Shown one piece after another: positions 1-51,465 of a stretch of 64,000 bases of DNA. The notes beneath the pieces were generated by a model, which was not told the origin of the DNA, made no database searches, and was given only the letters and a program-made list of their open reading frames with translations. Made by a program: the position numbers and the translations under genes. This DNA comes from Escherichia phage LQ5. The stretch's first letter is position 1, and each line of letters begins with the position of its first letter. The DNA is taken from the sequence record OR677401; one strand, 5' to 3'.

Positions 1-965
1 TGTTCAATATTAAATGTCTATCTGAATCTGAACAAGAGAAAGTAGTTTCCCTCTATAAATCCGGTAATTATACTCAGCAAGAACTAGCTGACTGGTATGG
101 TGTTTCGGTTGATACCATTCGTAAAGTTCTGAAAAATGATGAAGAAGCTAAACGTTCTCAAGTGGTTATTACCGGAAATGTTACGGTAACAGTTCCTAAC
201 CTGCTGGTTGTTCCTGTTGAAGCCACTATTGGTGGTTCTCGTCCAGAAATTATCTGGAATGCTAGTTCTAAATTCGTATCCATCACTGAAGGTCGTACAG
301 TATGGAACACCACTAATAAGAACAAACATTTTGATGCCATCGTACAGGCTCTTAAAGAATCTCGTTTCGATGACGCGATTAAACTGATTTCCATTAAAGA
401 AGCCGTTAAGGCCTTTGTTAAAGGCAACGTTCGTATTGAAGGTGGACGTCTGGTTTACCAAGGCATTGAATTGCGTTCAGGGTTGATTGACCGTATTATC
501 ACTTCAATGGAAAACGGTGAAGACTTCGAATTCTACCTGCCGTTCCTTGAGAACCTGTTAGAAAACCCAAGCGAAAAAGCTGTACAACGTTTGTTCGACT
601 TCTTGGTGGCAAACGACATCAAAATTACTGAAGATGGTCACTTTATTACGTGGAAGGTGGTTAACTCCGATTACACCGACTGCCGTACCGGTACGTTTGA
701 TAACTCACCAGGCAAACCGGTTAAAATGCCTCGTTCTCGTGTAAATGACGATGATGAAGTAACCTGTTCAAGTGGTCTGCACGTTTGCTCTCGTAGTTAT
801 ATCGGTCATTTTGGTAACTCAAGCTGTAAAGTAGTTTCATGTAAAGTTAACCCACGTGATGTTGTTAGTATTCCGGTCGATTACGGTGATGCTAAAATGC
901 GTGTATGTTATTATGAAGTTCTGGAAGACGTCACCGAACAGTTCGCAAACGAATACAAATACTAA
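1..965 (+). CDS. rIIB: rIIB membrane-associated rapid-lysis/Rex-exclusion protein (start codon cut by window edge)
   Basis: Frame starting at nt 3 reads (M)FNIKCLSESEQEKVVSLYKSGNYTQQELADW..., matching the T4 rIIB N-terminus (MYNIKCL...); continuous to stop at 965; track ORF 162..965 is an internal-Met fragment of the same frame. Confidence 0.85.
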   Translation, partial: FNIKCLSESEQEKVVSLYKSGNYTQQELADWYGVSVDTIRKVLKNDEEAKRSQVVITGNVTVTVPNLLVVPVEATIGGSRPEIIWNASSKFVSITEGRTVWNTTNKNKHFDAIVQALKESRFDDAIKLISIKEAVKAFVKGNVRIEGGRLVYQGIELRSGLIDRIITSMENGEDFEFYLPFLENLLENPSEKAVQRLFDFLVANDIKITEDGHFITWKVVNSDYTDCRTGTFDNSPGKPVKMPRSRVNDDDEVTCSSGLHVCSRSYIGHFGNSSCKVVSCKVNPRDVVSIPVDYGDAKMRVCYYEVLEDVTEQFANEYKY

Positions 966-40882: not shown

Positions 40883-41333
40883 GTTAGAAATAAGAAGCAA
40901 TTTTCCATGGCCATCATGTGCATTAAGTAACTTTGCTAAATGGCCTTTCGTTATGGATGGTATCCAATTTGGTGGGCTCGAAGGATTCCTCCAAGGATGT
41001 AAGGTGAGAAATCATGAACAACAAAAACGTATATTTGGGATGTCCGGTCTGGCCGCACAACAAACTGGAAGAGCTTATGCTAGAGCTGCGGACCGTGGGA
41101 CGCTTTTCTGGCTTGGAATTCCCTTTTCAAGATACTCTACAGCATGGAAAGAGTTGTACGAAAATGCTTATTTTGAAGCAGCGCTCCAAAACAAAGGATT
41201 CCGCGACGCATTACAAGCTACAAAGGGCAAAGTTTTAAAGCATTCGATGGCGGGCCACCTTACAGAATGTGATACAATACTAACTGAAAAAGAGTTTATC
41301 GACATCCTAAACAAATTGAGAGATTTATTATGA
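40866..41333 (+). CDS. NADAR-domain (YbiA-like) protein, putative ADP-ribosyl/N-glycosidic hydrolase
   Basis: 155 aa; LSNFAKWPFVMDG...LEGFLQGCKV resembles the E. coli YbiA core FSNFAAWPIKVDG...SEHYFQAQKF as I recall it; call is by motif only. Confidence 0.5.
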   Translation: MSKMSELEIRSNFPWPSCALSNFAKWPFVMDGIQFGGLEGFLQGCKVRNHEQQKRIFGMSGLAAQQTGRAYARAADRGTLFWLGIPFSRYSTAWKELYENAYFEAALQNKGFRDALQATKGKVLKHSMAGHLTECDTILTEKEFIDILNKLRDLL

Positions 41334-41968
41334 AACCAGTTATCTTAACAGATATCGATGGAGTATGTTTAAGTTGGCAGTCCGGCTTGCCTTATTTCGC
41401 ACAGAAATATAATTTGCCTTTAGAACATATTTTGAATATGATTCAGGACGAACGTTTCTTATCTCCTGGTGAGCTGTTTAATTGTGATAATGAATTAGGC
41501 GCTCGTTTAATCGAGAAGTACAATCAGTCAGATTTTATTCGTTATCTGTCTCCTTACATGGACGCATTAAAACATATCAACAAGCTCAAAAAAGACTTCG
41601 ATTTTGTAGCCGTGACTGCGCTAGGCGACTCAATTGATGCACTGCTGAATAGACAATTCAATTTGAATGCTTTGTTCCCTGGCGCATTCAAGGAGATTCT
41701 GATGTGTGGTCATTCAGAATCAAAAGAAGACCTCTTCATAAGAGCTAAAAATACGTACGGTAAACGTATTAAGTTTTATGTTGATGATTTGGCTCACCAC
41801 TGTGATGCTGCATCTAATGTTCTCATGGATATCCAAGTTTATTGGTTAGCTCGTGGTGAACGTGACTTTAAACCTAATTTAGCCGTAAAGGTTAATTCAT
41901 GGGACGATATCGCAGCAATCGAATCCCTTCGTAATAATGCCGCAGTTGAATGGATTGCTCGAGGTTAA
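41330..41968 (+). CDS. HAD-superfamily hydrolase (nucleotidase/phosphatase-like)
   Basis: 212 aa; N-terminal HAD motif I ILTDIDGV; ATGA overlap with the NADAR ORF. Confidence 0.5.
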   Translation: MKPVILTDIDGVCLSWQSGLPYFAQKYNLPLEHILNMIQDERFLSPGELFNCDNELGARLIEKYNQSDFIRYLSPYMDALKHINKLKKDFDFVAVTALGDSIDALLNRQFNLNALFPGAFKEILMCGHSESKEDLFIRAKNTYGKRIKFYVDDLAHHCDAASNVLMDIQVYWLARGERDFKPNLAVKVNSWDDIAAIESLRNNAAVEWIARG

Positions 41969-42258: not shown

Positions 42259-43782
42259 ATGATTTTAGATATTTTAAACGAAATTGCTGCTATTGATTCT
42301 ACTAAAGCTAAAGAAGCCATTATTGCTCGTGAAAAGAACAATGAGCTTCTGAAACGTGTTTATCGTATGGCTTATACCCGTCGTCTGAACTACGGTATTA
42401 AAAAGTGGCCAGAACCTGGATTTACATCTCAATCCTTTGGTATGATTACTCTTGAAGACCTTCTTGATTTCGCTGAATTCACATTAGCCACACGTAAGAT
42501 TACGGGTAATGCGGCTATTGAAGAACTGGCTCAAATCATTGCTGATGCTAAGGCCCCGGATGCCGAGGTATTACGTCGTGTAATGATGCGCGACCTTGAA
42601 TGTGGTGCATCGATTTCTATTGCTAACAAGGTTTGGAAAGGTTTAATCCCTGAACAACCGCAGATGTTGGCGAGTTCTTATGATGAAGCTTTGATTAAGA
42701 AAAATATTAAATGGCCAGCGTTTGCTCAATTAAAAGCTGATGGTGCTCGTTGTTTTGCCGAAGTTCGTAACGATGGTGTGACATTCCTTACTCGTGGTGG
42801 TAACGAATATCAAGGGCTTAATCTTTTGGCGGCTGAATTAATGGCCATGACCGAAGAAGCTCGACAACGCCATCCTAATGGCGTTATGATTGATGGCGAA
42901 TTAGTTTACCATACTCCTAAGGTAGAACCTAAAGCATCTAATGATTTGTTTAGTATGTTTGACGAGGAACTTCCTGAATTAAGTAAGGCTAAGGAATTCC
43001 AAACTGTCGCCGATCGTTCTACGTCAAATGGCTTGGCTAACAAAGCTCTTCAAGGAACTATTTCGGCTACTGAAGCCGCTGGTATGGTATTACAGGCATG
43101 GGATTATGTCCCATTGGATGTCGTATATTCCGAAGGTAAAATTAAAGGCGATAAGTATGATGTACGCTTTACAGCCTTAGAACTTATGGTTGCTCATAAT
43201 GTCGTATTGCATGGTACAACGCGTGTTGAAGCTATCGAAAACCAGTGGGTTAATAATCTTGAAGAAGCTAAAGTCGTTTATAAGAAATATGTCGACCAAG
43301 GTCTGGAAGGCATTATCCTTAAGAACATGGACTCCTACTGGGAAAACCGCCGTTCTAAGAATCTTATCAAGTTCAAAGAAGTAATCGATATCGCTTTAGA
43401 AGTGGTAGGTTATTATGAACACTCGAAGGACCCTAACAAGCTAGGTGGTGTCGAGTTGGTATCACGTTGTCGTCGAATTACAAGCGACTGTGGTTCAGGC
43501 TTTAAAGATACCACCCATAAGAAAGATAAATCAGGTAAAAAGGTATTGATTCCATTGGAAGACCGTCCTGATTTAGACCGTGAACTTCTTATGAAACAAG
43601 CTCGTGAAGGTAAATTGATTGGCCGTATTGCCGACTGTGAATGTAATGGTTGGGTTCATTCTAAAGGACGTACCGATACTGTAGGTATTTTCCTTCCAAT
43701 TATTAAAGGTTGGCGTTTCGATAAAACAGAAGCTGATACATTTGAAGATGTATTTGGTGATTGGTCTCAAACTGGACTATAA
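42259..43782 (+). CDS. 30: ATP-dependent DNA ligase gp30
   Basis: MILDILNEIA.I.STK.K.AI....K.NELLKRVYR..Y.R.L.Y.IKKWP.PG...QSFGM.TL.D.LDF.EFTLATRK.TGNAAIEEL and adenylation site AQLKADGARCFAEVR match T4 gp30; track ORF 42220 over-extended. Confidence 0.92.
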   Translation: MILDILNEIAAIDSTKAKEAIIAREKNNELLKRVYRMAYTRRLNYGIKKWPEPGFTSQSFGMITLEDLLDFAEFTLATRKITGNAAIEELAQIIADAKAPDAEVLRRVMMRDLECGASISIANKVWKGLIPEQPQMLASSYDEALIKKNIKWPAFAQLKADGARCFAEVRNDGVTFLTRGGNEYQGLNLLAAELMAMTEEARQRHPNGVMIDGELVYHTPKVEPKASNDLFSMFDEELPELSKAKEFQTVADRSTSNGLANKALQGTISATEAAGMVLQAWDYVPLDVVYSEGKIKGDKYDVRFTALELMVAHNVVLHGTTRVEAIENQWVNNLEEAKVVYKKYVDQGLEGIILKNMDSYWENRRSKNLIKFKEVIDIALEVVGYYEHSKDPNKLGGVELVSRCRRITSDCGSGFKDTTHKKDKSGKKVLIPLEDRPDLDRELLMKQAREGKLIGRIADCECNGWVHSKGRTDTVGIFLPIIKGWRFDKTEADTFEDVFGDWSQTGL

Positions 43783-43783
43783 T

Positions 43784-43966
43784 ATGAAAGCTTATTTAGA
43801 AACCGTGGTTATTGGATATAAAGAAGGTGGGGATGTCTCCACTGCAGTGTCCCAAATTGTCCTTGAATTTGAAAATGAAATCGCATTCGCTGATTTTAAA
43901 GATAATTTCGACCGCTATGAAAAGGGTCCTAAATTTGAAGTATACCGTACGTTGCTACCACTTTAA
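43784..43966 (+). CDS. hypothetical small protein
   Basis: Track ORF 43742..43966; ATG just after the ligase stop; followed by terminator. Confidence 0.35.
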   Translation: MKAYLETVVIGYKEGGDVSTAVSQIVLEFENEIAFADFKDNFDRYEKGPKFEVYRTLLPL

Positions 43967-43986
43967 GGCCTTCGGGCCTTTTCTGG
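43966..43986 (+). terminator. rho-independent terminator
   Basis: AGGCC-UUCG-GGCCU + UUUCUGG. Confidence 0.6.
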
Positions 43987-44016
43987 CATAAATAAGGTTA
44001 TTAAAGAGGAATTATT

Positions 44017-45912
44017 ATGTCCGAACAATTGAATGAGGTATTTGACGGCGCTATAGATTTATCAGCTGTCAATTTAAACCCTAAACTTAAAGTACCACAG
44101 ATTTGGAATATAAAGGCTGAAGGTAATGAGAACCTTGTTGCACGCATGGTTTCATATACTTCTGAAGGTGATACAATCCGCCAAGTTAAACCGGGTGACA
44201 AATACGTTCATATTATTTTAATGAGCCTATCATCTAAAGGGGCCCCGGCAGAACTCAAAGGTGGTTTAGGTAGTAACCCCATTTCCGCTATTCGTTCTAT
44301 ATTTGATACGGTTTATGAACAAGTTAAAAAGCTCCGTATGGATGCCGTTATGTTCCGTTTTCCTACTAAGAAAATGAAAGGTCAGGAAAAAGCTGTACAA
44401 CGAGTTCTAGCCAAATTAATAGCTACTAGAGCAGGTGGGCAATTCAAGGTCCTTGATGCCTTGTATCAATATACAGGCAAACATTCATATGTTTTTATCT
44501 ATCGTAAAAATAAAAATATAGAATCAATAAACGGTATTCCTAATATTAATCCGGAATTGTATACTAAAGTCGAATCTGAAGTCGGTGATGTGTATGTTTC
44601 AAAGAAAACAGGCGAAGATGTTACCAAATTAGAAGCTATAGCTAAGTCTATAGACGAAATAGAAAAATCACGTTCTGATAAAATGGTTATAACCAAGACT
44701 AAGGTTTCTAAACGGGCCGCTATAAATGCGTTATATTCTACCGCCGAGCCTACAGGATTGAGTAAATTTTCGGCAGAGCACAAAAAAGCTTATGCAGATT
44801 ATTCTGCTACTAGTTCCGTTCATTCTTCTGAAGATTCTAAAGAAAGCCAAATAGCTTTAGCCAGTAATAAAATATTAAAAGACACCTCTAAAGAAATGGC
44901 AGAATATTTGGATTATATTTTTAACGGTGTTAATCCATCATTTGAAGTAGACGAGCGCAAACTTAAACTAATTGCTGATATAAAGTTTGCTTTAGAGGCA
45001 TCAGATTCTTTAGATAAATCTAATAGTGTCATAGAGGCTTTAAAATCAGGTAAATCTCATGTAGACATTCTTAGACTAGTCGCTGCGGCCCTTTTAGATG
45101 ATTCAGTTAAAGGTACTTGGGCTAGAGAATCTAAAATCAAGGAAGTAATAAAATCCTTAGTAGCAGTTTATACAAAATCTATCCAACCGTTGTTTAAGAT
45201 ATCTGATAATCCTAATTTATCCAAACCTCAAGAAGAGGCAGTCAAAAAGTATACTCGTGGCGGCTACAACCATATAAACAACTTTTTGCTAGGTAAAACA
45301 GATACCACCGATGAAATGATAAAAATGATTGGTGAGTTGGATTCTACATTTGAAAATGGTACAAAACTTCCTAAAGGAACCATAGTGTATCGTTCTCAGA
45401 TAATGCCTACCGAAATGGCTTTGAATTCTATAAAACATAAGGTGATGTATCTTCCTATTTTTGCATCAACTTCATTGGCTCCTAATATTTTCGGTGAAAT
45501 GGGTCATGCTCAATCCAACTTAGACCCTGAAGCTCTTTCTAGCGATATAGATAGTAATCTTGAAGACACCATTAAAAGTGCGACCGGAAGTGCTAGAGAT
45601 ACCATTAAGCTAGGGTTAATTATTAAAGGTGCTGATAAAATTAAGGTTATTGTGCCCGGTGACTTGGCTAATTGGTCTACAGAAACCGAAGTAATTCTTC
45701 CTCGTGGGGTTATGCTTAAGATTAATAAAGTATACGGTGCTTCCAAGGGACCTATGGGTTCAATTGGTAAATATGTTTTAGTGGAATGTGAAGTTGTAGC
45801 TACCGAGCAAATCACAGAGGAAAATTCATATAGCACCGGATTCTCGTTTGGAAATTATGATAGAATTATGTATGAAGATTCTATGGAAAAATTAGCAAAT
45901 TTATTTAAATAG
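44017..45912 (+). CDS. Alt-like ADP-ribosyltransferase paralogue 1
   Basis: 631 aa; N-terminal ~230 aa conserved with the two downstream ORFs and T4 Alt; C-terminal mART signature Y-R-S-Q ... F-A-S-T-S ... E-V-I-L-P-R-G. Confidence 0.8.
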   Translation: MSEQLNEVFDGAIDLSAVNLNPKLKVPQIWNIKAEGNENLVARMVSYTSEGDTIRQVKPGDKYVHIILMSLSSKGAPAELKGGLGSNPISAIRSIFDTVYEQVKKLRMDAVMFRFPTKKMKGQEKAVQRVLAKLIATRAGGQFKVLDALYQYTGKHSYVFIYRKNKNIESINGIPNINPELYTKVESEVGDVYVSKKTGEDVTKLEAIAKSIDEIEKSRSDKMVITKTKVSKRAAINALYSTAEPTGLSKFSAEHKKAYADYSATSSVHSSEDSKESQIALASNKILKDTSKEMAEYLDYIFNGVNPSFEVDERKLKLIADIKFALEASDSLDKSNSVIEALKSGKSHVDILRLVAAALLDDSVKGTWARESKIKEVIKSLVAVYTKSIQPLFKISDNPNLSKPQEEAVKKYTRGGYNHINNFLLGKTDTTDEMIKMIGELDSTFENGTKLPKGTIVYRSQIMPTEMALNSIKHKVMYLPIFASTSLAPNIFGEMGHAQSNLDPEALSSDIDSNLEDTIKSATGSARDTIKLGLIIKGADKIKVIVPGDLANWSTETEVILPRGVMLKINKVYGASKGPMGSIGKYVLVECEVVATEQITEENSYSTGFSFGNYDRIMYEDSMEKLANLFK

Positions 45913-45920
45913 GATAGATT

Positions 45921-48002
45921 ATGACCCAATTAAATGAAGTGTTCGAGTCCGAAGGTACACTGCCTGTTGTGAACTTGAACCCAAAACTTAAAGTACCTCA
46001 GATTTGGAAGATTGGAGACGCGGAGTCTCAGTTAGTAGCACGTATGGTATCCTATGCTTCTGAAGGCGATGCTATTAAACAGGTTAAGATGGGTGATAAA
46101 TATGCCCACGTTATCCTTATGAGCCTTTCAGCTAAAGGTTCGCCTGCCGAACTTAAAGGCGGCTTAGGCCCTACTCCTGTAGATGCGATTAATACTATTT
46201 TTGATGTAGTTTATGACCAAGTTAAAAAGCTTCGTATGGATGCCGTGATGTTCCGTTTCCCTACTAAGAAAATGAAAGGTCAAGGCCCTATCGTTCAACG
46301 TATTATCCAACGTTTGGTAGCACAGAAAACCGGTGGACGTTTTAAAGTGGTTCCGGCTATGTACCAATTTACCGGTAAACATACTTACATCCTGGTAGTC
46401 CGTAAACAAGCTGATATCGAAGATATCAAAGGTATGCCTGGAATTAATGCTGAATTGTATACTAAGGTAGATTCTGATGTCGGTGAAGTTTATATTTCCA
46501 AAAAAGAAGGTGTGCAGGTTACTAAAGAAACTGCTATTGCTGGCAGTATTGCTAAGGTTGAAGAACGTCGCACTGATAAAATGGTTATAACCAAGACTAA
46601 GATTTCTAGGCGCGCCATTGCAGCAAGCCAATCATTGGAATCTTATCGTAATGAAAGTGAATTGTTTAAGAAATATGAAGCTACTGCAGCGGATTTTAAT
46701 AAACCGGCAACAGTTCCATTAATCCCTGAGGCTCAGGAAATGGTTACTAATAACAATTCTCCTGCGGCTAAAAATAAGGTTGCTAATATAGTGGCTGAAG
46801 GCACTGCTGAAGAATTGCATTACGATTATAAAATGTTCCCACTTCACGGTATTGGCGAAATCCAAGAGAAAATTAAAGAGAAAATTCTTACAGCAATAAA
46901 AAACGAACCTTTGACATCTGTTAAAGCTCTAGAAAAATATGCCTCTGCTATTAATACCATTTTCGAAGAATATAAAGGCGAGTGGCTGGCTATCCATAAC
47001 AGAACTCGTAAAGGCCAACCTGATGACCTTTGGAACGAATTGACAGAGGCCAAGTGGAAAGCAGCCAAGACTAAGTTCATTAAAAAACGCGTGTATAGTT
47101 TTGCTGGTGTGGGTGGTGGTATTATGGTTGATATTACTATTGCTCGTGAAGGTTCTAAATATACTCCATCACAAAAGCGTGGTATCAGAGAATATTGTGG
47201 TTCAGGATATACAGACATAAATAATCTTCTTTTAGGACGTTATAATCCTCAGAACTATGAGGTTATGAGCGAAAAAGATATCGAATCCGCTGTAAATAAT
47301 TTAGATTTAGCTTTTGAAAATGGTGACCGTATACCGGAAGGCATTACAGTTTATCGTGCCCAGAGTATGACTGCTCCTATATACGAAGCACTAGTTAAAA
47401 ATAAAGTGTTTTATTTTAGAAATTTTGTATCTACTTCTTTAACTCCTATAATTTTCGGACGTTTTGGTGTTACGCACGCTGGTATTGGTCTTTTAGAACC
47501 TGAAGTTCGCAATGAATTGACAGTCGATAAAAATGAAGAAGGAATAACTATTAACCCTAATGAAATAAGAGCGTATAAAGAAAACCCTGATTACGTTAAA
47601 GTTCAAATAGGATGGGCTATTGATGGGGCTCATAAAGTTAATGTCGTATATCCAGGAAATCTCGGAATAGCAACTGAAGCCGAAGTTATTCTACCGCGTG
47701 GATTAATGGTCAAAGTTAATAAAATAACAGATTCTTCTAATAATGATGGAACAACATCTAGTAATACAAAACTCATCCAAGCTGAAGTTATGACAACAGA
47801 TGAGCTTCAAGAATCTGTGGTATATGATGGTGACGTACTAATGGAAACCGGCGAGTTGGTCGTATATCAAGATGACTTCGATACTTCCGAAAGCCCCTTA
47901 TCTTTTGATTCATTTGTTAAATCTACACGGTTTGATGTACTGCCTCTTTTGGCTTCATGCATAGACCTCTATGACATCCCAGAAAAATTCACCCAAGGGT
48001 AA
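45921..48002 (+). CDS. alt: Alt ADP-ribosyltransferase (closest to T4 Alt)
   Basis: 693 aa (T4 Alt 682 aa); blocks KVDSDVGEVYISKK.G.QVTK..AIA.SIA, SKYTP.QKRGIREY.GSGY.DINN.LLG.YNP, VFYFRNFVSTSL, EVILPRGLMVKVNKITD, AEVMTT.EL.ESV.YDGD.LMETGELV. Confidence 0.88.
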   Translation: MTQLNEVFESEGTLPVVNLNPKLKVPQIWKIGDAESQLVARMVSYASEGDAIKQVKMGDKYAHVILMSLSAKGSPAELKGGLGPTPVDAINTIFDVVYDQVKKLRMDAVMFRFPTKKMKGQGPIVQRIIQRLVAQKTGGRFKVVPAMYQFTGKHTYILVVRKQADIEDIKGMPGINAELYTKVDSDVGEVYISKKEGVQVTKETAIAGSIAKVEERRTDKMVITKTKISRRAIAASQSLESYRNESELFKKYEATAADFNKPATVPLIPEAQEMVTNNNSPAAKNKVANIVAEGTAEELHYDYKMFPLHGIGEIQEKIKEKILTAIKNEPLTSVKALEKYASAINTIFEEYKGEWLAIHNRTRKGQPDDLWNELTEAKWKAAKTKFIKKRVYSFAGVGGGIMVDITIAREGSKYTPSQKRGIREYCGSGYTDINNLLLGRYNPQNYEVMSEKDIESAVNNLDLAFENGDRIPEGITVYRAQSMTAPIYEALVKNKVFYFRNFVSTSLTPIIFGRFGVTHAGIGLLEPEVRNELTVDKNEEGITINPNEIRAYKENPDYVKVQIGWAIDGAHKVNVVYPGNLGIATEAEVILPRGLMVKVNKITDSSNNDGTTSSNTKLIQAEVMTTDELQESVVYDGDVLMETGELVVYQDDFDTSESPLSFDSFVKSTRFDVLPLLASCIDLYDIPEKFTQG

Positions 48003-48005
48003 ATA

Positions 48006-50129
48006 ATGGAAAATTTAAACGAAGTTTTTGATAGCGATTCCGCTAAAAACTATCCGGTAACAAATCTTAAACCTGGCTCAGGCGTACCGCAGATTTTTGC
48101 GGTACATGCTCCTGGTAATGACAATTTAGTAGCACGTATGGTATCTTATGCGTCTGAAGGCGATGCTATTAAAATGGTTAAGCCAGGCGATAAGTACGTC
48201 CATGTCATCCTAATGAGTTTATCTGCTAAAGGCGCCCCGGCAGAACTCAAGGGTGGTTTGGGTACCGATCCACTCGGTACACTGAACACCATTTTCGATA
48301 CCATATATGAACAAATAAACAAACTTAAAATGGACGCGGTTTTGTTCCGTTTCCCTACTAAGAAAATGAAAGGTAAAGGTCCTACCGTTCAGCGCGTATT
48401 AGCTCGCTTGGCTATGGCTCGTACCGGTGGTAAGTTTAAAGTTGTTGACGACATGTTCCAATTCAGCGGAAAACATACCTACGCTCTTTTAGTACGTCGT
48501 GGTGCTAATATTGAAGATATCAAGGGTATGCCTGAAATTAATGCCGATCTTTATACTAAAGTTGAGTCTAAAGTTGGCGAAGTTTATGTTTCTAAGAAAA
48601 CCGGCCAGGCCGTAAGTAAGGTCGAAGCCGTAGCGGCATCTATTGCACAAGTTGAAGAGAAACGTACTGATAAGGCTGTCATTACTCGTACTAAGATTTC
48701 GCGTCGTATGGCAGCGGCGGCGCAGTATTCTACTGCTGAGCCTGAAACTTTGTCCCCTAAAGAATTGCAGGTTTATAACGAGTTTGAAGCTTCTGTACCG
48801 GTTCACACGGCTGAAGGCCCTGAGAACGAAGGTATTGAACAGATTAGTCAGAACTTTAAAAAAGGTGCCATTACTAAAATGCGTCAGGCTTCTCAGTTTA
48901 AATCTAAGAGCGAGGACCTTGCCAACTTTAGATACACTATTGCTCTCACACACGCTTTAATGACTGATAGTAAATTTAAACTAAATTATGCTAATAGAGA
49001 TAAACAAGGGTTTGAAATTTACTCTAATAATATGGCATTTTTTAATACAGAAGTCGATAGACTTTTAAGTGGCCTTTCGCAAATCAATACAACCAATAGT
49101 CTGGATATTATTAAGAAAATTGTTAATAACCTGAGTACCCGTTTTAAGGGTTCCCCTTCAGAGAAAGCATCTAGAATTGCTTTCGCTATGGAAGCCGTTT
49201 ATAAACTGGTTAACGATTCTATTAGTGATGCATATGCTTATTCAGGCGAGCTCATTAAACCTAAGGACCTAACCAAAGATGAAAGCAATGCTATTATTGA
49301 ATATTGCGCGGCTGAATATGCTCCTATGAACTTATTCCTTTTAGGTAAACCTGAATCCGAAAACAATACAACGGCTATTAAATTGATTAAGGATTTAGAC
49401 TCAGCATTTACTAAGGGTATTAAACTTCCTAAGGGTACTATTTTGTATCGTGGTCAGGATTTGCCATACAAAATTCTGCGCCATAATATCGATAACAAAA
49501 CATTTTACTTTAAGAACTTTGTGTCAGCCTCATTAAAGCCTAACATCTTTGGTGAATTCGGTAAAAATTATATGGCCCTCGACAACCAAGCCGTTTTTGT
49601 TGGTGGTGAAGGTTCTTTGTCCTCCGCTGATGAGTTGTTTAAATTGGCTAGTGGTAGTTCATCTGATGTGGGTGAAGTCGATGACGAAGAGGTAGAATGG
49701 GAAGAAGACGAGTTTGGTAATCCAATTGCACCTGAAGGTCCTGCAGATAGAATTGCTGAAATTGGTATGGTTATTCGAGGTGCTGAAGCAGTTAAAGTTA
49801 TCGCTCCTGGTGACCTTACAGAATATGCCGAAGAAGCAGAAATTATCCTTCCGCGTGGATTATTGTTGAAGGTTGATAAAGTAGCGGCTTTTGCCATGAA
49901 TGATAGAGTATCTCACAAATACCTTATGGAAGCTACCGTAACACCTCCTTCAGAGCTCAGCGAATCTGTTTACGATGGTGACCATTTGATGGAAACTGGT
50001 GAAGTTCGCCTGATGGATGGATTTAGTCAATTCTTGGTTAATGAATCCGTTTCTGAAAGCAACGAAGCTATGGAAATCCTTGCCGCGTCTTTGGATATCT
50101 CTTCTTTATCAAATAAATTCAAAATGTAG
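48006..50129 (+). CDS. Alt-like ADP-ribosyltransferase paralogue 3
   Basis: 707 aa; same N-terminal module and R/S-x-S/E mART signature (ILYRGQ, FVSASL, EIILPRGLLLKV); distinct acidic insert (DDEEVEWEEDEFG). Confidence 0.8.
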   Translation: MENLNEVFDSDSAKNYPVTNLKPGSGVPQIFAVHAPGNDNLVARMVSYASEGDAIKMVKPGDKYVHVILMSLSAKGAPAELKGGLGTDPLGTLNTIFDTIYEQINKLKMDAVLFRFPTKKMKGKGPTVQRVLARLAMARTGGKFKVVDDMFQFSGKHTYALLVRRGANIEDIKGMPEINADLYTKVESKVGEVYVSKKTGQAVSKVEAVAASIAQVEEKRTDKAVITRTKISRRMAAAAQYSTAEPETLSPKELQVYNEFEASVPVHTAEGPENEGIEQISQNFKKGAITKMRQASQFKSKSEDLANFRYTIALTHALMTDSKFKLNYANRDKQGFEIYSNNMAFFNTEVDRLLSGLSQINTTNSLDIIKKIVNNLSTRFKGSPSEKASRIAFAMEAVYKLVNDSISDAYAYSGELIKPKDLTKDESNAIIEYCAAEYAPMNLFLLGKPESENNTTAIKLIKDLDSAFTKGIKLPKGTILYRGQDLPYKILRHNIDNKTFYFKNFVSASLKPNIFGEFGKNYMALDNQAVFVGGEGSLSSADELFKLASGSSSDVGEVDDEEVEWEEDEFGNPIAPEGPADRIAEIGMVIRGAEAVKVIAPGDLTEYAEEAEIILPRGLLLKVDKVAAFAMNDRVSHKYLMEATVTPPSELSESVYDGDHLMETGEVRLMDGFSQFLVNESVSESNEAMEILAASLDISSLSNKFKM

Positions 50130-50158
50130 TTTACAACACCACAAGGATGTGGTACTAT
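50129..50158 (+). promoter_or_regulatory. T4-type early promoter
   Basis: gtttac overlapping the alt-3 stop, 18-nt spacer, GGTACTAT. Confidence 0.5.
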
Positions 50159-50186
50159 TACCTTACACAAACATGAGGAGAACATT

Positions 50187-50477
50187 ATGAAATCTGCATT
50201 CCGTTTTAATGGTCAAGAACTGGTAGTTGAAAACGTTATCCCTGCTTCCGAAGAGTTTGACAGTGCCGTAGGTAATGAATTACGTCGAGTTTTCGGTGAA
50301 GACAAACAGTTTGATATCCGACCTGTTGAGAATTTTTCTTATCCAGAACAAACCGAAAACATTTTTAACGGTGTAGTGACAGGACAACTCGAATCTGAAG
50401 CTCCTATTTCTATCACGGTCTTTGTTAAAAAGCAGCCATTAATGACTGCAGCAGGTTTCATTTCGTTCCGTAAATAA
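50187..50477 (+). CDS. hypothetical protein
   Basis: 96-aa ORF with GAGGAGAACATT-ATG. Confidence 0.45.
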   Translation: MKSAFRFNGQELVVENVIPASEEFDSAVGNELRRVFGEDKQFDIRPVENFSYPEQTENIFNGVVTGQLESEAPISITVFVKKQPLMTAAGFISFRK

Positions 50478-50485
50478 ACCCCTAA

Positions 50486-50511
50486 AGGAGAGCATATGCT
50501 CTCCTTTTTTG
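50486..50511 (+). terminator. palindromic hairpin terminator between convergent genes
   Basis: AGGAGAGCAT/ATGCTCTCCT perfect palindrome followed by U6. Confidence 0.65.
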
Positions 50512-51465
50512 TTATAACAGCCTCGATATTCCATTATTAATAGCACGCCCACCAAATGTATTAACCAATCCTGTTAATCCACTAGAAGCTCCTGAAAGTC
50601 TACTTAATTTGGCCACTGAAGAACTCAGCGAATTGCTCTCACTTAGCCCAGCGACGCCTTTAATAATCTTATCTTCCAACCACTCATAAGCAGCTTGTTT
50701 ACCAACTGCACCCGTCTGTACACTTCTATAAGCAAATGTAACATCAAATGAAGCAATTTGGTTATCACCGTCGTAGGATAATTCCGGTGACGAAACACCA
50801 ACAGGAACACAACCATTAAGCATTACTACTGTATGGGGTAATCCATTACGAGAATGAAGGTTGACTTGAATGTCGGCTTCAACATCCTCGGGTAATGCTC
50901 TTAATTGTGTAATAGGGTCTTGAACACTATTAACCCAATCATTAAAAGCACGGTAGTTAGCAGCTTCAGAATCCATACGGAAGCTTAATACTAATGGAGA
51001 ATATTCTCTTCCGGTAATTTTGATGTTAGGTGAGTTGTGGTTCAAATCCATTTCATAGTTCAAAGTATTATCCGGGATTTTAACGGCGTGGACTAAAAGA
51101 CCTGCCGTAGGATAGGCCATATTGAAAAAATCCATCAGATATGTACCTACTTCAAACTCCCCTAGTAAGCTCTGCACAACCCTGGATGACATAGCTCCAA
51201 TCAAATATTTACTTATGCCTGACTTACGAATCAACTTCTGAGTGCCCGCTGTCACTAATGTCGTAACACCTTGGGTCAACTCTCCTTGTGTAATACCAAA
51301 CAAATCGCTATTCAATGGGATATTGTTAAATAAAGCTCCACCAAACTGGTCGAGGAGCGCTTGGGATTTAGAAGAAGGAACCGTAGCAAATACTACACTA
51401 AACAGGTTATTCCTCTGTAGGTCAATATTAATTGCCTGGTTCTGAAATTCTTGTAAAGTATACAT
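50512..51465 (-). CDS. 54: gp54 baseplate-tail tube initiator
   Basis: 317 aa; MY.L.EF.NQAIN.D.QRNN.FS.VFAT.PS.KS...LIRKSG.SKYLIGAMS.R.VQSLLG.F.VGTYL.DFFNMAY matches T4 gp54. Confidence 0.85.
   Translation of the reverse strand: MYTLQEFQNQAINIDLQRNNLFSVVFATVPSSKSQALLDQFGGALFNNIPLNSDLFGITQGELTQGVTTLVTAGTQKLIRKSGISKYLIGAMSSRVVQSLLGEFEVGTYLMDFFNMAYPTAGLLVHAVKIPDNTLNYEMDLNHNSPNIKITGREYSPLVLSFRMDSEAANYRAFNDWVNSVQDPITQLRALPEDVEADIQVNLHSRNGLPHTVVMLNGCVPVGVSSPELSYDGDNQIASFDVTFAYRSVQTGAVGKQAAYEWLEDKIIKGVAGLSESNSLSSSVAKLSRLSGASSGLTGLVNTFGGRAINNGISRLL

Follow-up and report, generated by a model that had tools for sequence, protein, structure and literature searches.

Three consecutive genes of Escherichia phage LQ5, here designated A1, A2, and A3, encode proteins that, as judged from profile matches and alignments, are mono-ADP-ribosyltransferases of the Alt family with intact catalytic residues. 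The genes lie in a 64,000-nucleotide stretch of sequence record OR677401, referred to below as the window. Alt of phage T4 is carried in the phage head at about 40 copies, is injected with the DNA, and ADP-ribosylates host proteins, among them the alpha subunit of RNA polymerase. By analogy with the latter enzyme, A1, A2, and A3 probably form an array of three Alt-family enzymes that would be made late, packaged, trimmed, injected, and directed each against its own host substrates. The array is not new, and its genes are ordinary Alt-family members that have already been annotated. The present analysis adds an orthology map, including the origin of the T4 genes alt.-1 and alt.-2, conserved double processing sites, and the exchange of cassettes within a lineage-specific frame.

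The Pfam family PF03496 (ADPrib_exo_Tox) matched A1 (E = 7.6e-14), A2 (E = 8.7e-35), and A3 (E = 2.6e-17), and residues 1-234 of A1 matched PHROG 802 ('Alt-like RNA polymerase ADP-ribosyltransferase') with E = 1.6e-119. At these E-values, the family similarity is far beyond chance. The initial annotation of the window had proposed three consecutive plus-strand open reading frames (ORFs), each with an ADP-ribosyltransferase (ART) core marked by R, S-x-S, and E signatures. The coordinates of the ORFs matched exactly, and all the quoted motifs were found. The catalytic arginine is R459 in A1 (VYRSQ), R479 in A2 (VYRAQ), and R482 in A3 (LYRGQ). The S-x-S motif is S484-T-S486, S504-T-S506, and S507-A-S509, respectively, and the E-x-E motif, followed by [VI]ILPRG, is E556-T-E558, E586-A-E588, and E610-A-E612. 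Alignment with T4 Alt, ModA, and ModB, which had been suggested as a check, placed the R, S, and E-x-E residues of all three paralogues in register with those of the T4 enzymes. The R, S-x-S, and E-x-E columns are kept in 123 to 124 of the 124 aligned family members. Because of the E-x-E motif, the target residue is probably arginine.

A structural model of A1 confirmed the ART fold and contained a single ART-fold domain. The layout of the binary toxins VIP2, iota Ia, and C2I, which comprise two tandem ART folds, was not found, as a helical bundle precedes the ART domain and the N-terminal module (N-module) has a different alpha/beta fold. Searching the PDB by sequence returned no Alt structure and a weak match (E about 0.007) to the ART of CPILE-a/BEC-a. 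In Pfam at E ≤ 1, neither a MuF (SPP1 gp7-like) domain nor a second effector domain was found besides PF03496, the sole other match (PF22240) being a sub-threshold chance match (E = 0.15, 12.9 bits versus a cut-off of 27). An exhaustive search of 1.84 billion proteins by hidden Markov model yielded 176 clusters at E ≤ 1e-3, which shows that the family is small, although the profile covered all 681 columns and the count therefore includes ART-only matches. A word-indexed protein search with the N-module alone returned three hits only.

Identity between the copies of the window is 67-72% over residues 1-129, 56-68% over residues 130-235, 13-25% in the central region, 34-41% in the ART domain, and 17-38% in the C-terminal tails. 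A shared N-terminal module of about 230 residues, as initially annotated, is therefore present, with 56-72% identity across residues 1-235. The middle domains had been described as divergent and different. They are divergent, but they are homologous versions of one helical region rather than unrelated domains, as indicated by matches to the central part of PHROG 802 (E = 1e-5, 8e-21, and 2e-16 for A1, A2, and A3, respectively). Two further differences concern the ART domain. The residue in the loop preceding E-x-E is W in A1, I in A2, and Y in A3. In addition, A3 harbors a highly acidic insert of 28 residues, DVGEVDDEEVEWEEDEFGNPIAPEGPADR (residues 554-581; window positions 49665-49748), located between S-x-S and the strand leading to E-x-E and absent from A1, A2, and T4 Alt.

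The Alt N-domain corresponds to positions 1-235 of PHROG 802, and the copies of the window were assigned to it through PHROG 802 and through homologues bearing PF26846 (Tevenvirinae_ADPRT), which was found on 120 of 120 A3 homologues among the matches listed. The N-modules of the window are 41-44% identical to that of T4 Alt. Residues 1-240 of A2, modeled with AlphaFold2 (AF2) and an alignment of 68 sequences, form an alpha/beta domain (predicted local distance difference test, pLDDT, 88.9; predicted TM score, pTM, 0.87). The N-domains are strongly basic (isoelectric point, pI, about 9.7; net charge +13). A fold search of the N-module against predicted viral structures (BFVD) matched Alt homologues, many of them truncated or split. 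Weak matches (E 1e-5 to 1e-6, TMq 0.45-0.5, identity 10-17%) were obtained with large uncharacterised proteins encoded by Ackermannviridae, Vibrio, and Agrobacterium phages, including RC-2014, VP-1, and Atu_ph07, the protein of the last being annotated with a zeta-toxin domain. Four metagenomic proteins, P0184 (L007 552-3980), P0187, P0190, and P0173, of 1142, 541, 347, and 485 aa, respectively, contain the first ~170 residues of the Alt N-module and no Pfam-detectable ART. Inspection by eye revealed degenerate ART-like motifs in P0184 and P0173 and none in P0187. Together, the metagenomic proteins and the weak BFVD matches suggest that the Alt N-module may also carry other cargo.

Mass spectrometry of T4 heads has established that Alt loses 6 N-terminal residues (cleavage after ITE-6) and 63 C-terminal residues (after LTE-619) (PMC5694885; PMC9026906). 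Sites aligned to ITE-6 are present in A1 (LNE-7), A2 (LNE-6), and A3 (LNE-6), as are sites aligned to LTE-619 (ITE-601, LQE-631, and LSE-653, respectively). The motif [L/I]xE occupies the aligned columns in 119 (N-terminal site) and 117 (C-terminal site) of the 124 homologues. Cleavage at both sites would generate mature proteins of 594 (A1), 625 (A2), and 647 (A3) residues. The C-terminal tails have a pI of 4.0-4.5, and AF2 predicted disorder (pLDDT < 50) for residues 1-7 of A2 and 599-631 of A1. Since each tail starts at an [L/I]xE motif that aligns with LTE-619 of T4, the tails are probably second acidic propeptides that are removed. The initial annotation had recognized that the tails were distinct and had overlooked the processing site at their start. 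It had also assigned a capsid-targeting and processing signal to the shared N-terminus. This assignment is likely to apply to the first 6-7 residues (LNE aligned to ITE-6), but not to the other ~228 residues, which by analogy with T4 would stay in the mature protein as a folded basic domain.

Each of the three copies could be assigned to a lineage by sequence comparison. A2 is the orthologue of T4 Alt, with identities of 62% (ART), 35-37% (central region), and 52% (tail), versus 13-36% to A1 and A3. A3 is a member of a widespread second Alt lineage (Alt2). Full-length matches to its central region, ART, and tail, at about 50% identity, were found in about 470 phage records, including many from Tequatrovirus (RB3, Ozark, MLF4, Kha5h, and SH7). 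A3 and Tequatrovirus Alt2 are 58-65% identical in the ART, 48-49% in the central region, and 63-65% in the tail. The Ozark alt2 gene (L006 3802-5859) lies between alt and alt.-3, and A3 is syntenic with it. In T4, the same slot is occupied by two small ORFs, alt.-1 and alt.-2 (L002 7066-7451), whose annotation attributes them to an old duplication of the beginning of alt. Their products share 95-96% identity with two stretches of Ozark Alt2, residues 1-56 and residues 62-116, respectively. At the DNA level, T4 matches the first ~350 nt of Ozark alt2 at 96% identity and then jumps by ~1.7 kb to the 3' end of alt2. Thus, alt.-1 and alt.-2 are, on this comparison, the deletion remnant of an A3-type gene, and the reference T4 is, with respect to the A3 lineage, a deletion mutant.

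A1 is assigned by the same approach to a rare third lineage, shared with Shigella phage SP18. Its central region and ART are at least 99% identical to those encoded in 7 phage records only and less than 60% identical to all others. Its nearest relative outside these records is the 624-aa first Alt of SP18 (P0018), with identities of 70% (N-module), 51% (central region), and 69% (ART). A second type of trio, consisting of A2-type, X-type, and A3-type genes, is present in MX01, QL01, AnYang, KIT01, C6, LHE83, and fDHCT2. The A2 and A3 proteins of the window are 96-100% identical to those of slots 1 and 3 of MX01 and QL01, and the X cassette and SP18 altb share about 77% identity. Three full copies were detected in at least about 17 of the ~1200 records containing the N-module, including the 7 of A1 type, a tally that is an estimate and not an exact count.

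Comparison with Escherichia phage WG01 provided information on selection and recent history. A1 differs from its WG01 counterpart at 1 of 1893 nt. For A3, 69 of the 82 nucleotide differences are located in the N-module (48006-48713) and 13 in the rest of the gene, with a synonymous divergence (dS) of 0.50 versus 0.04. These observations suggest that A1 has spread very recently and that fine-scale recombination has occurred within A3. Ratios of nonsynonymous to synonymous divergence (dN/dS) of 0.06 (A2) and 0.05 (A3) indicate that both genes are under strong purifying selection. For A1, the 69% identity of the SP18 ART and the integrity of all motifs argue that the protein is functional.

The lineage assignments and the selection estimates bear on the possibility that the three copies perform the same task as T4 Alt, with RNA polymerase alpha and an identical range of further proteins as substrates, the array simply raising or buffering the amount of injected enzyme. 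All copies do have the same catalytic motif and architecture, T4 Alt is non-essential and modifies many proteins (PMC9026906; PMC5512222), and phages with one, two, or three alt copies all exist. We nevertheless consider redundancy unlikely in view of the divergence of the copies in the ART (34-41% identity) and central regions (13-25%), the maintenance of separate lineages across genera (ART identity of 58-65% between A3 and Alt2 and of 69% between A1 and SP18), and the strong purifying selection (dN/dS about 0.05). Recent dosage duplicates would also be near-identical, whereas DNA identity between the N-modules is 64-76%. Different substrates for A1, A2, and A3 are a reasonable inference from the ART divergence, the W/Y/I difference in the loop, the acidic insert of A3, and the long-term separate retention of the lineages.

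Comparison of phage lineages indicated that the N-domain and the tail follow the lineage of the phage, and that the central region and the ART form a cassette exchanged by recombination between genes and genera. Over residues 1-129, the two Ozark copies are 62% alike, compared with the values given above for the window, whereas identity across lineages is 36-43%, orthologues included (36-42% between the copies of the window and T4 Alt). The N-terminus of A3 is of the Dhakavirus type, with 38-39% identity to that of Tequatrovirus Alt2 over the same residues. Most of the neighboring genes compared are, at 59-67% identity, closer to their T4 counterparts than are the first 129 residues of the copies to T4 Alt, gp29 (35%) being the exception.

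Ozark Alt (L006 1705-3798) provides, by these comparisons, a clean case of exchange of the catalytic cassette between genera. This protein shares 98-100% of its N-module residues and 92% of its tail residues with T4 Alt, but only 67% of those in the ART, which is 93% identical to that of A2. The corresponding DNA matches T4 alt at 95-98% identity up to nt 680 and again from nt 1846 onward, with 45-72% over the intervening segment, whereas its identity to A2 over nt 1180-1850 is 82-95%. Similarly, P0027 (JS98 type) and A2 have 96-100% of residues in common over positions 1-225 and 620-693, compared with about 45% for the stretch between them. Conversely, P0093 and P0009 share one cassette (99% identity in the central region, 99% in the ART, and 95% in the tail) on N-modules that are 68% identical. 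The 124 sequences fell into 24 clusters by N-module (at a threshold of 80%) and 35 by cassette (at 60%), and 154 pairs combined N-modules at least 90% identical with cassettes less than 50% identical. Recent gene conversion among the N-modules of the window was also considered and was rejected, as DNA identity is 64-76% without long identical tracts.

The pattern of exchange raises the possibility of a counter-defence arsenal, in which A1, A3, and the X-type protein would hit immunity proteins or toxins instead of transcription, and cassette swapping would reflect an arms race. Cassettes cross genera while the delivery parts stay, cassette clusters outnumber N-domain clusters (35 versus 24), the 154 pairs have like N-domains and unlike cassettes, and copies are frequently gained and lost. 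There is also a precedent in the injected proteins Ip1, Ip2, and Ip3, which have specific roles against GmrSD, each acting on particular variants of it (PMC12373910). For A1 and A3, the proposal proceeds by analogy with Ip1-3, and the A2-type and A3-type cassettes are conserved under purifying selection, which differs from rapid diversification. On balance, we regard counter-defence as somewhat unlikely, and it is a refinement of the array of injected enzymes with separate substrates rather than an alternative to it. A broader proposal, which we put forward tentatively and at less than even chances, is that the alt locus is a polymorphic locus for injected effectors, in which a fixed delivery frame made of the N-domain and the C-propeptide would carry swapped cassettes acting on different targets, some of them defence proteins.

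The gene order of the window, DNA ligase - alt.1 - A1 - A2 - A3 - alt.-3 - gp54/48/29, is that of the T4 alt locus, and the order ligase - alt.1 - alt genes - alt.-3 - gp54 is common to the window, T4, and Ozark (Table 1). The alt.1 homologue was identified by a match of Pfam PF24647 (E = 2.8e-29) to residues 15-74 of ORF 43742-43966, and is 67% identical to T4 Alt.1. The alt.-3 homologue is 59% identical to T4 Alt.-3. In T4, mutations leading to C-terminal extension of Alt.-3 enable escape from the CmdTAC defence system (PMC11618068). The intervals separating A1 from A2 and A2 from A3 are 8 and 3 nt, respectively. Outside of the alt locus, ORF 41330-41968 (+ strand, 212 aa), at the position of T4 30.2, had no Pfam match. 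Its product starts with MKPVILTDIDGVCLSW and contains a D-x-D-G-V motif, which we take, from a reading of the sequence only, to resemble the first motif of HAD-type phosphatases.

Table 1. Features of the alt locus of the window and segments of the predicted A1, A2, and A3 proteins.
Feature	Position	Strand	Remarks
alt.1 homologue	43784-43966	+	Small gene between the DNA ligase gene and A1; PF24647 and identity to T4 Alt.1
Terminator-like GC hairpin	43968-43985	+	GGCCTTCGGGCC, then TTTTCT; read by eye; terminator scan gave no call
Late-promoter-like box	43987-43994	+	CATAAATA, one mismatch from T4 TATAAATA; 22 nt before the start codon of A1
Shine-Dalgarno sequence of A1	44003-44009	+	AAAGAGG
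A1	44017-45912	+	ORF, 631 aa
A2	45921-48002	+	ORF, 693 aa
A3	48006-50129	+	ORF, 707 aa
alt.-3 homologue	50187-50477	+	96 aa; final gene of the apparent transcription unit; DUF5498 (E = 2.9e-34), PHROG 1739
Intrinsic-terminator-like hairpin	50484-50507	+	Strong hairpin with a 10-bp stem and T run; separates alt.-3 from the convergent gp54 gene; terminator scan
Predicted N-propeptide (residues)	A1 1-7, A2 1-6, A3 1-6
N-module (residues)	A1 8-235, A2 7-235, A3 7-236		After the predicted propeptide
Helical central region (residues)	A1 236-385, A2 236-395, A3 237-405
ART domain (residues)	A1 386-601, A2 396-631, A3 406-653
Predicted C-propeptide (residues)	A1 602-631, A2 632-693, A3 654-707		30-62 residues, acidic

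The 6.1-kb region containing the array shares 99.1% identity with Salmonella phage vB_SalD_ABTNLS3 and 97.9% with WG01, and this closeness places the phage of the window in the genus Dhakavirus (Tevenvirinae). In the records of ABTNLS3 and WG01, all three genes carry the label 'Alt-like RNA polymerase ADP-ribosyltransferase', and the tandem array is also annotated in MX01, QL01, and others. Duplication of Alt in JS98, Bp7, and Ac42 was reported in 2014 in a paper on Acinetobacter phage ZZ1, which has three Alt-like genes, one full and one split (PMC4177764). The initial annotation had reasoned that its view of the array would lose ground if the latter were a routine annotated feature of most T-even phages with known redundant function. 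This objection applies in part, as the array is indeed routinely annotated in relatives, but these form a small clade only.

The short gaps and the presence of Shine-Dalgarno-like sequences upstream of A2 and A3 suggest that the locus is an operon-like array whose genes are co-expressed. Boxes with one mismatch from the T4 late promoter, such as that located upstream of A1, are not enriched in the window, and late timing of the array would follow the example of T4. These signals are relevant to a further possibility, namely that one or more copies are not virion proteins, acting instead within the cell like ModA and ModB, or are inactive or decaying passengers. Extra alt genes often decay, as exemplified by T4 alt.-1 and alt.-2, by the split genes of ZZ1, and by the truncated forms detected by BFVD in Melville, HY03, and CF1, and no exact late-promoter box was found. 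However, the three ORFs are full-length and keep every catalytic and processing motif, A2 and A3 have dN/dS values of about 0.05, all of them have the N-domain by which the packaged Alt family is defined, their identity to ModA and ModB is 15-16%, and the 8- and 3-nt gaps with Shine-Dalgarno sequences suggest co-expression. We therefore consider this explanation to be very unlikely.

In the preferred reading of three injected enzymes, all copies would be made late and built into the prohead core, as is T4 Alt, and the prohead protease (gp21) would trim each of them at both ends. The trimmed proteins would be retained with the DNA, plausibly with the help of the basic N-domain, and then injected. 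Each enzyme would ADP-ribosylate its own set of host proteins at arginine, the most likely target of A2 being RNA polymerase alpha, as for T4 Alt. In the sequence, the hints of late expression and packaging are limited to the one-mismatch late-promoter box and the conserved processing motifs. Several points weigh against this scheme. Packaging, cleavage, injection, and enzyme activity are attributed to all three copies on the model of T4 Alt, and the proposal of different targets draws on sequence divergence, on differences in the loop preceding E-x-E, and on retention of the lineages. Selection on A1 is unmeasurable by dN/dS because of the single nucleotide difference from WG01. The exact T4 late-promoter box is absent from positions 43500-50600. 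Our literature search turned up no experiment on A1, A2, or A3, and no work on the function or the virion proteomics of a second or third Alt paralogue. Finally, extra copies are frequently lost or split in the phages listed above and are therefore dispensable at least in some settings.

Among known systems, T4 Alt (682 aa) resembles the proteins of the window in domain order, genomic position, R-S-ExE residues, and both gp21 cleavage motifs. T4 differs in having one functional copy instead of three, and A1 and A3 are only 34-41% (ART) and 13-25% (central region) identical to the Alt type. A3 occupies the same slot as T4 alt.-1/alt.-2 and Tequatrovirus Alt2, downstream of alt and upstream of alt.-3; the T4 gene was cut to two small ORFs by the ~1.7-kb deletion, whereas A3 is intact. 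Tandem Alt genes are found at the same site in JS98 (altA/altB), MX01 and QL01 (trio), and SP18 (alta/altb). In MX01 and QL01, the X-type gene lies between A2 and A3, whereas the window and WG01 instead have A1 before A2, and JS98 altA has another central region and ART cassette on the same N-domain and tail. ModA and ModB, in spite of their aligned catalytic residues, are about 200 aa long, lack the N-domain, the central region, and the propeptide motifs, and are encoded at a separate T4 locus. A published account states that, in contrast to Alt, neither is delivered from the head by injection (PMC5512222). The closest known systems also include the bacterial R-S-E ADP-ribosylating toxins C3, Vis, VIP2, iota/CPILE-a, Certhrax, and Tre1. 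The T4 internal proteins Ip1-3, which have a capsid-targeting sequence, likewise represent several injected proteins per virion with a short N-propeptide cut after Glu by gp21, and the Ip loci are polymorphic between T-even phages (PMC9026906; PMC12373910). They differ in being 8-20 kDa, non-enzymatic, and unrelated in sequence, and the Alt proteins have in addition a large N-domain and a C-propeptide.

Although Alt is the classic case of a phage enzyme co-injected with DNA, it has been studied mainly in T4, which has a single functional copy, while many of its relatives retain a second Alt lineage and a few a third. The alt locus thus offers a natural set of injected ADP-ribosyltransferases whose substrates probably differ, as well as a natural scaffold for the delivery of foreign cargo from T4-like heads. 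If the tentative proposal of a polymorphic effector locus is correct, the delivery frame would be matched to the head of each phage, and the model phage T4 would have hidden an effector system by deleting its second copy.

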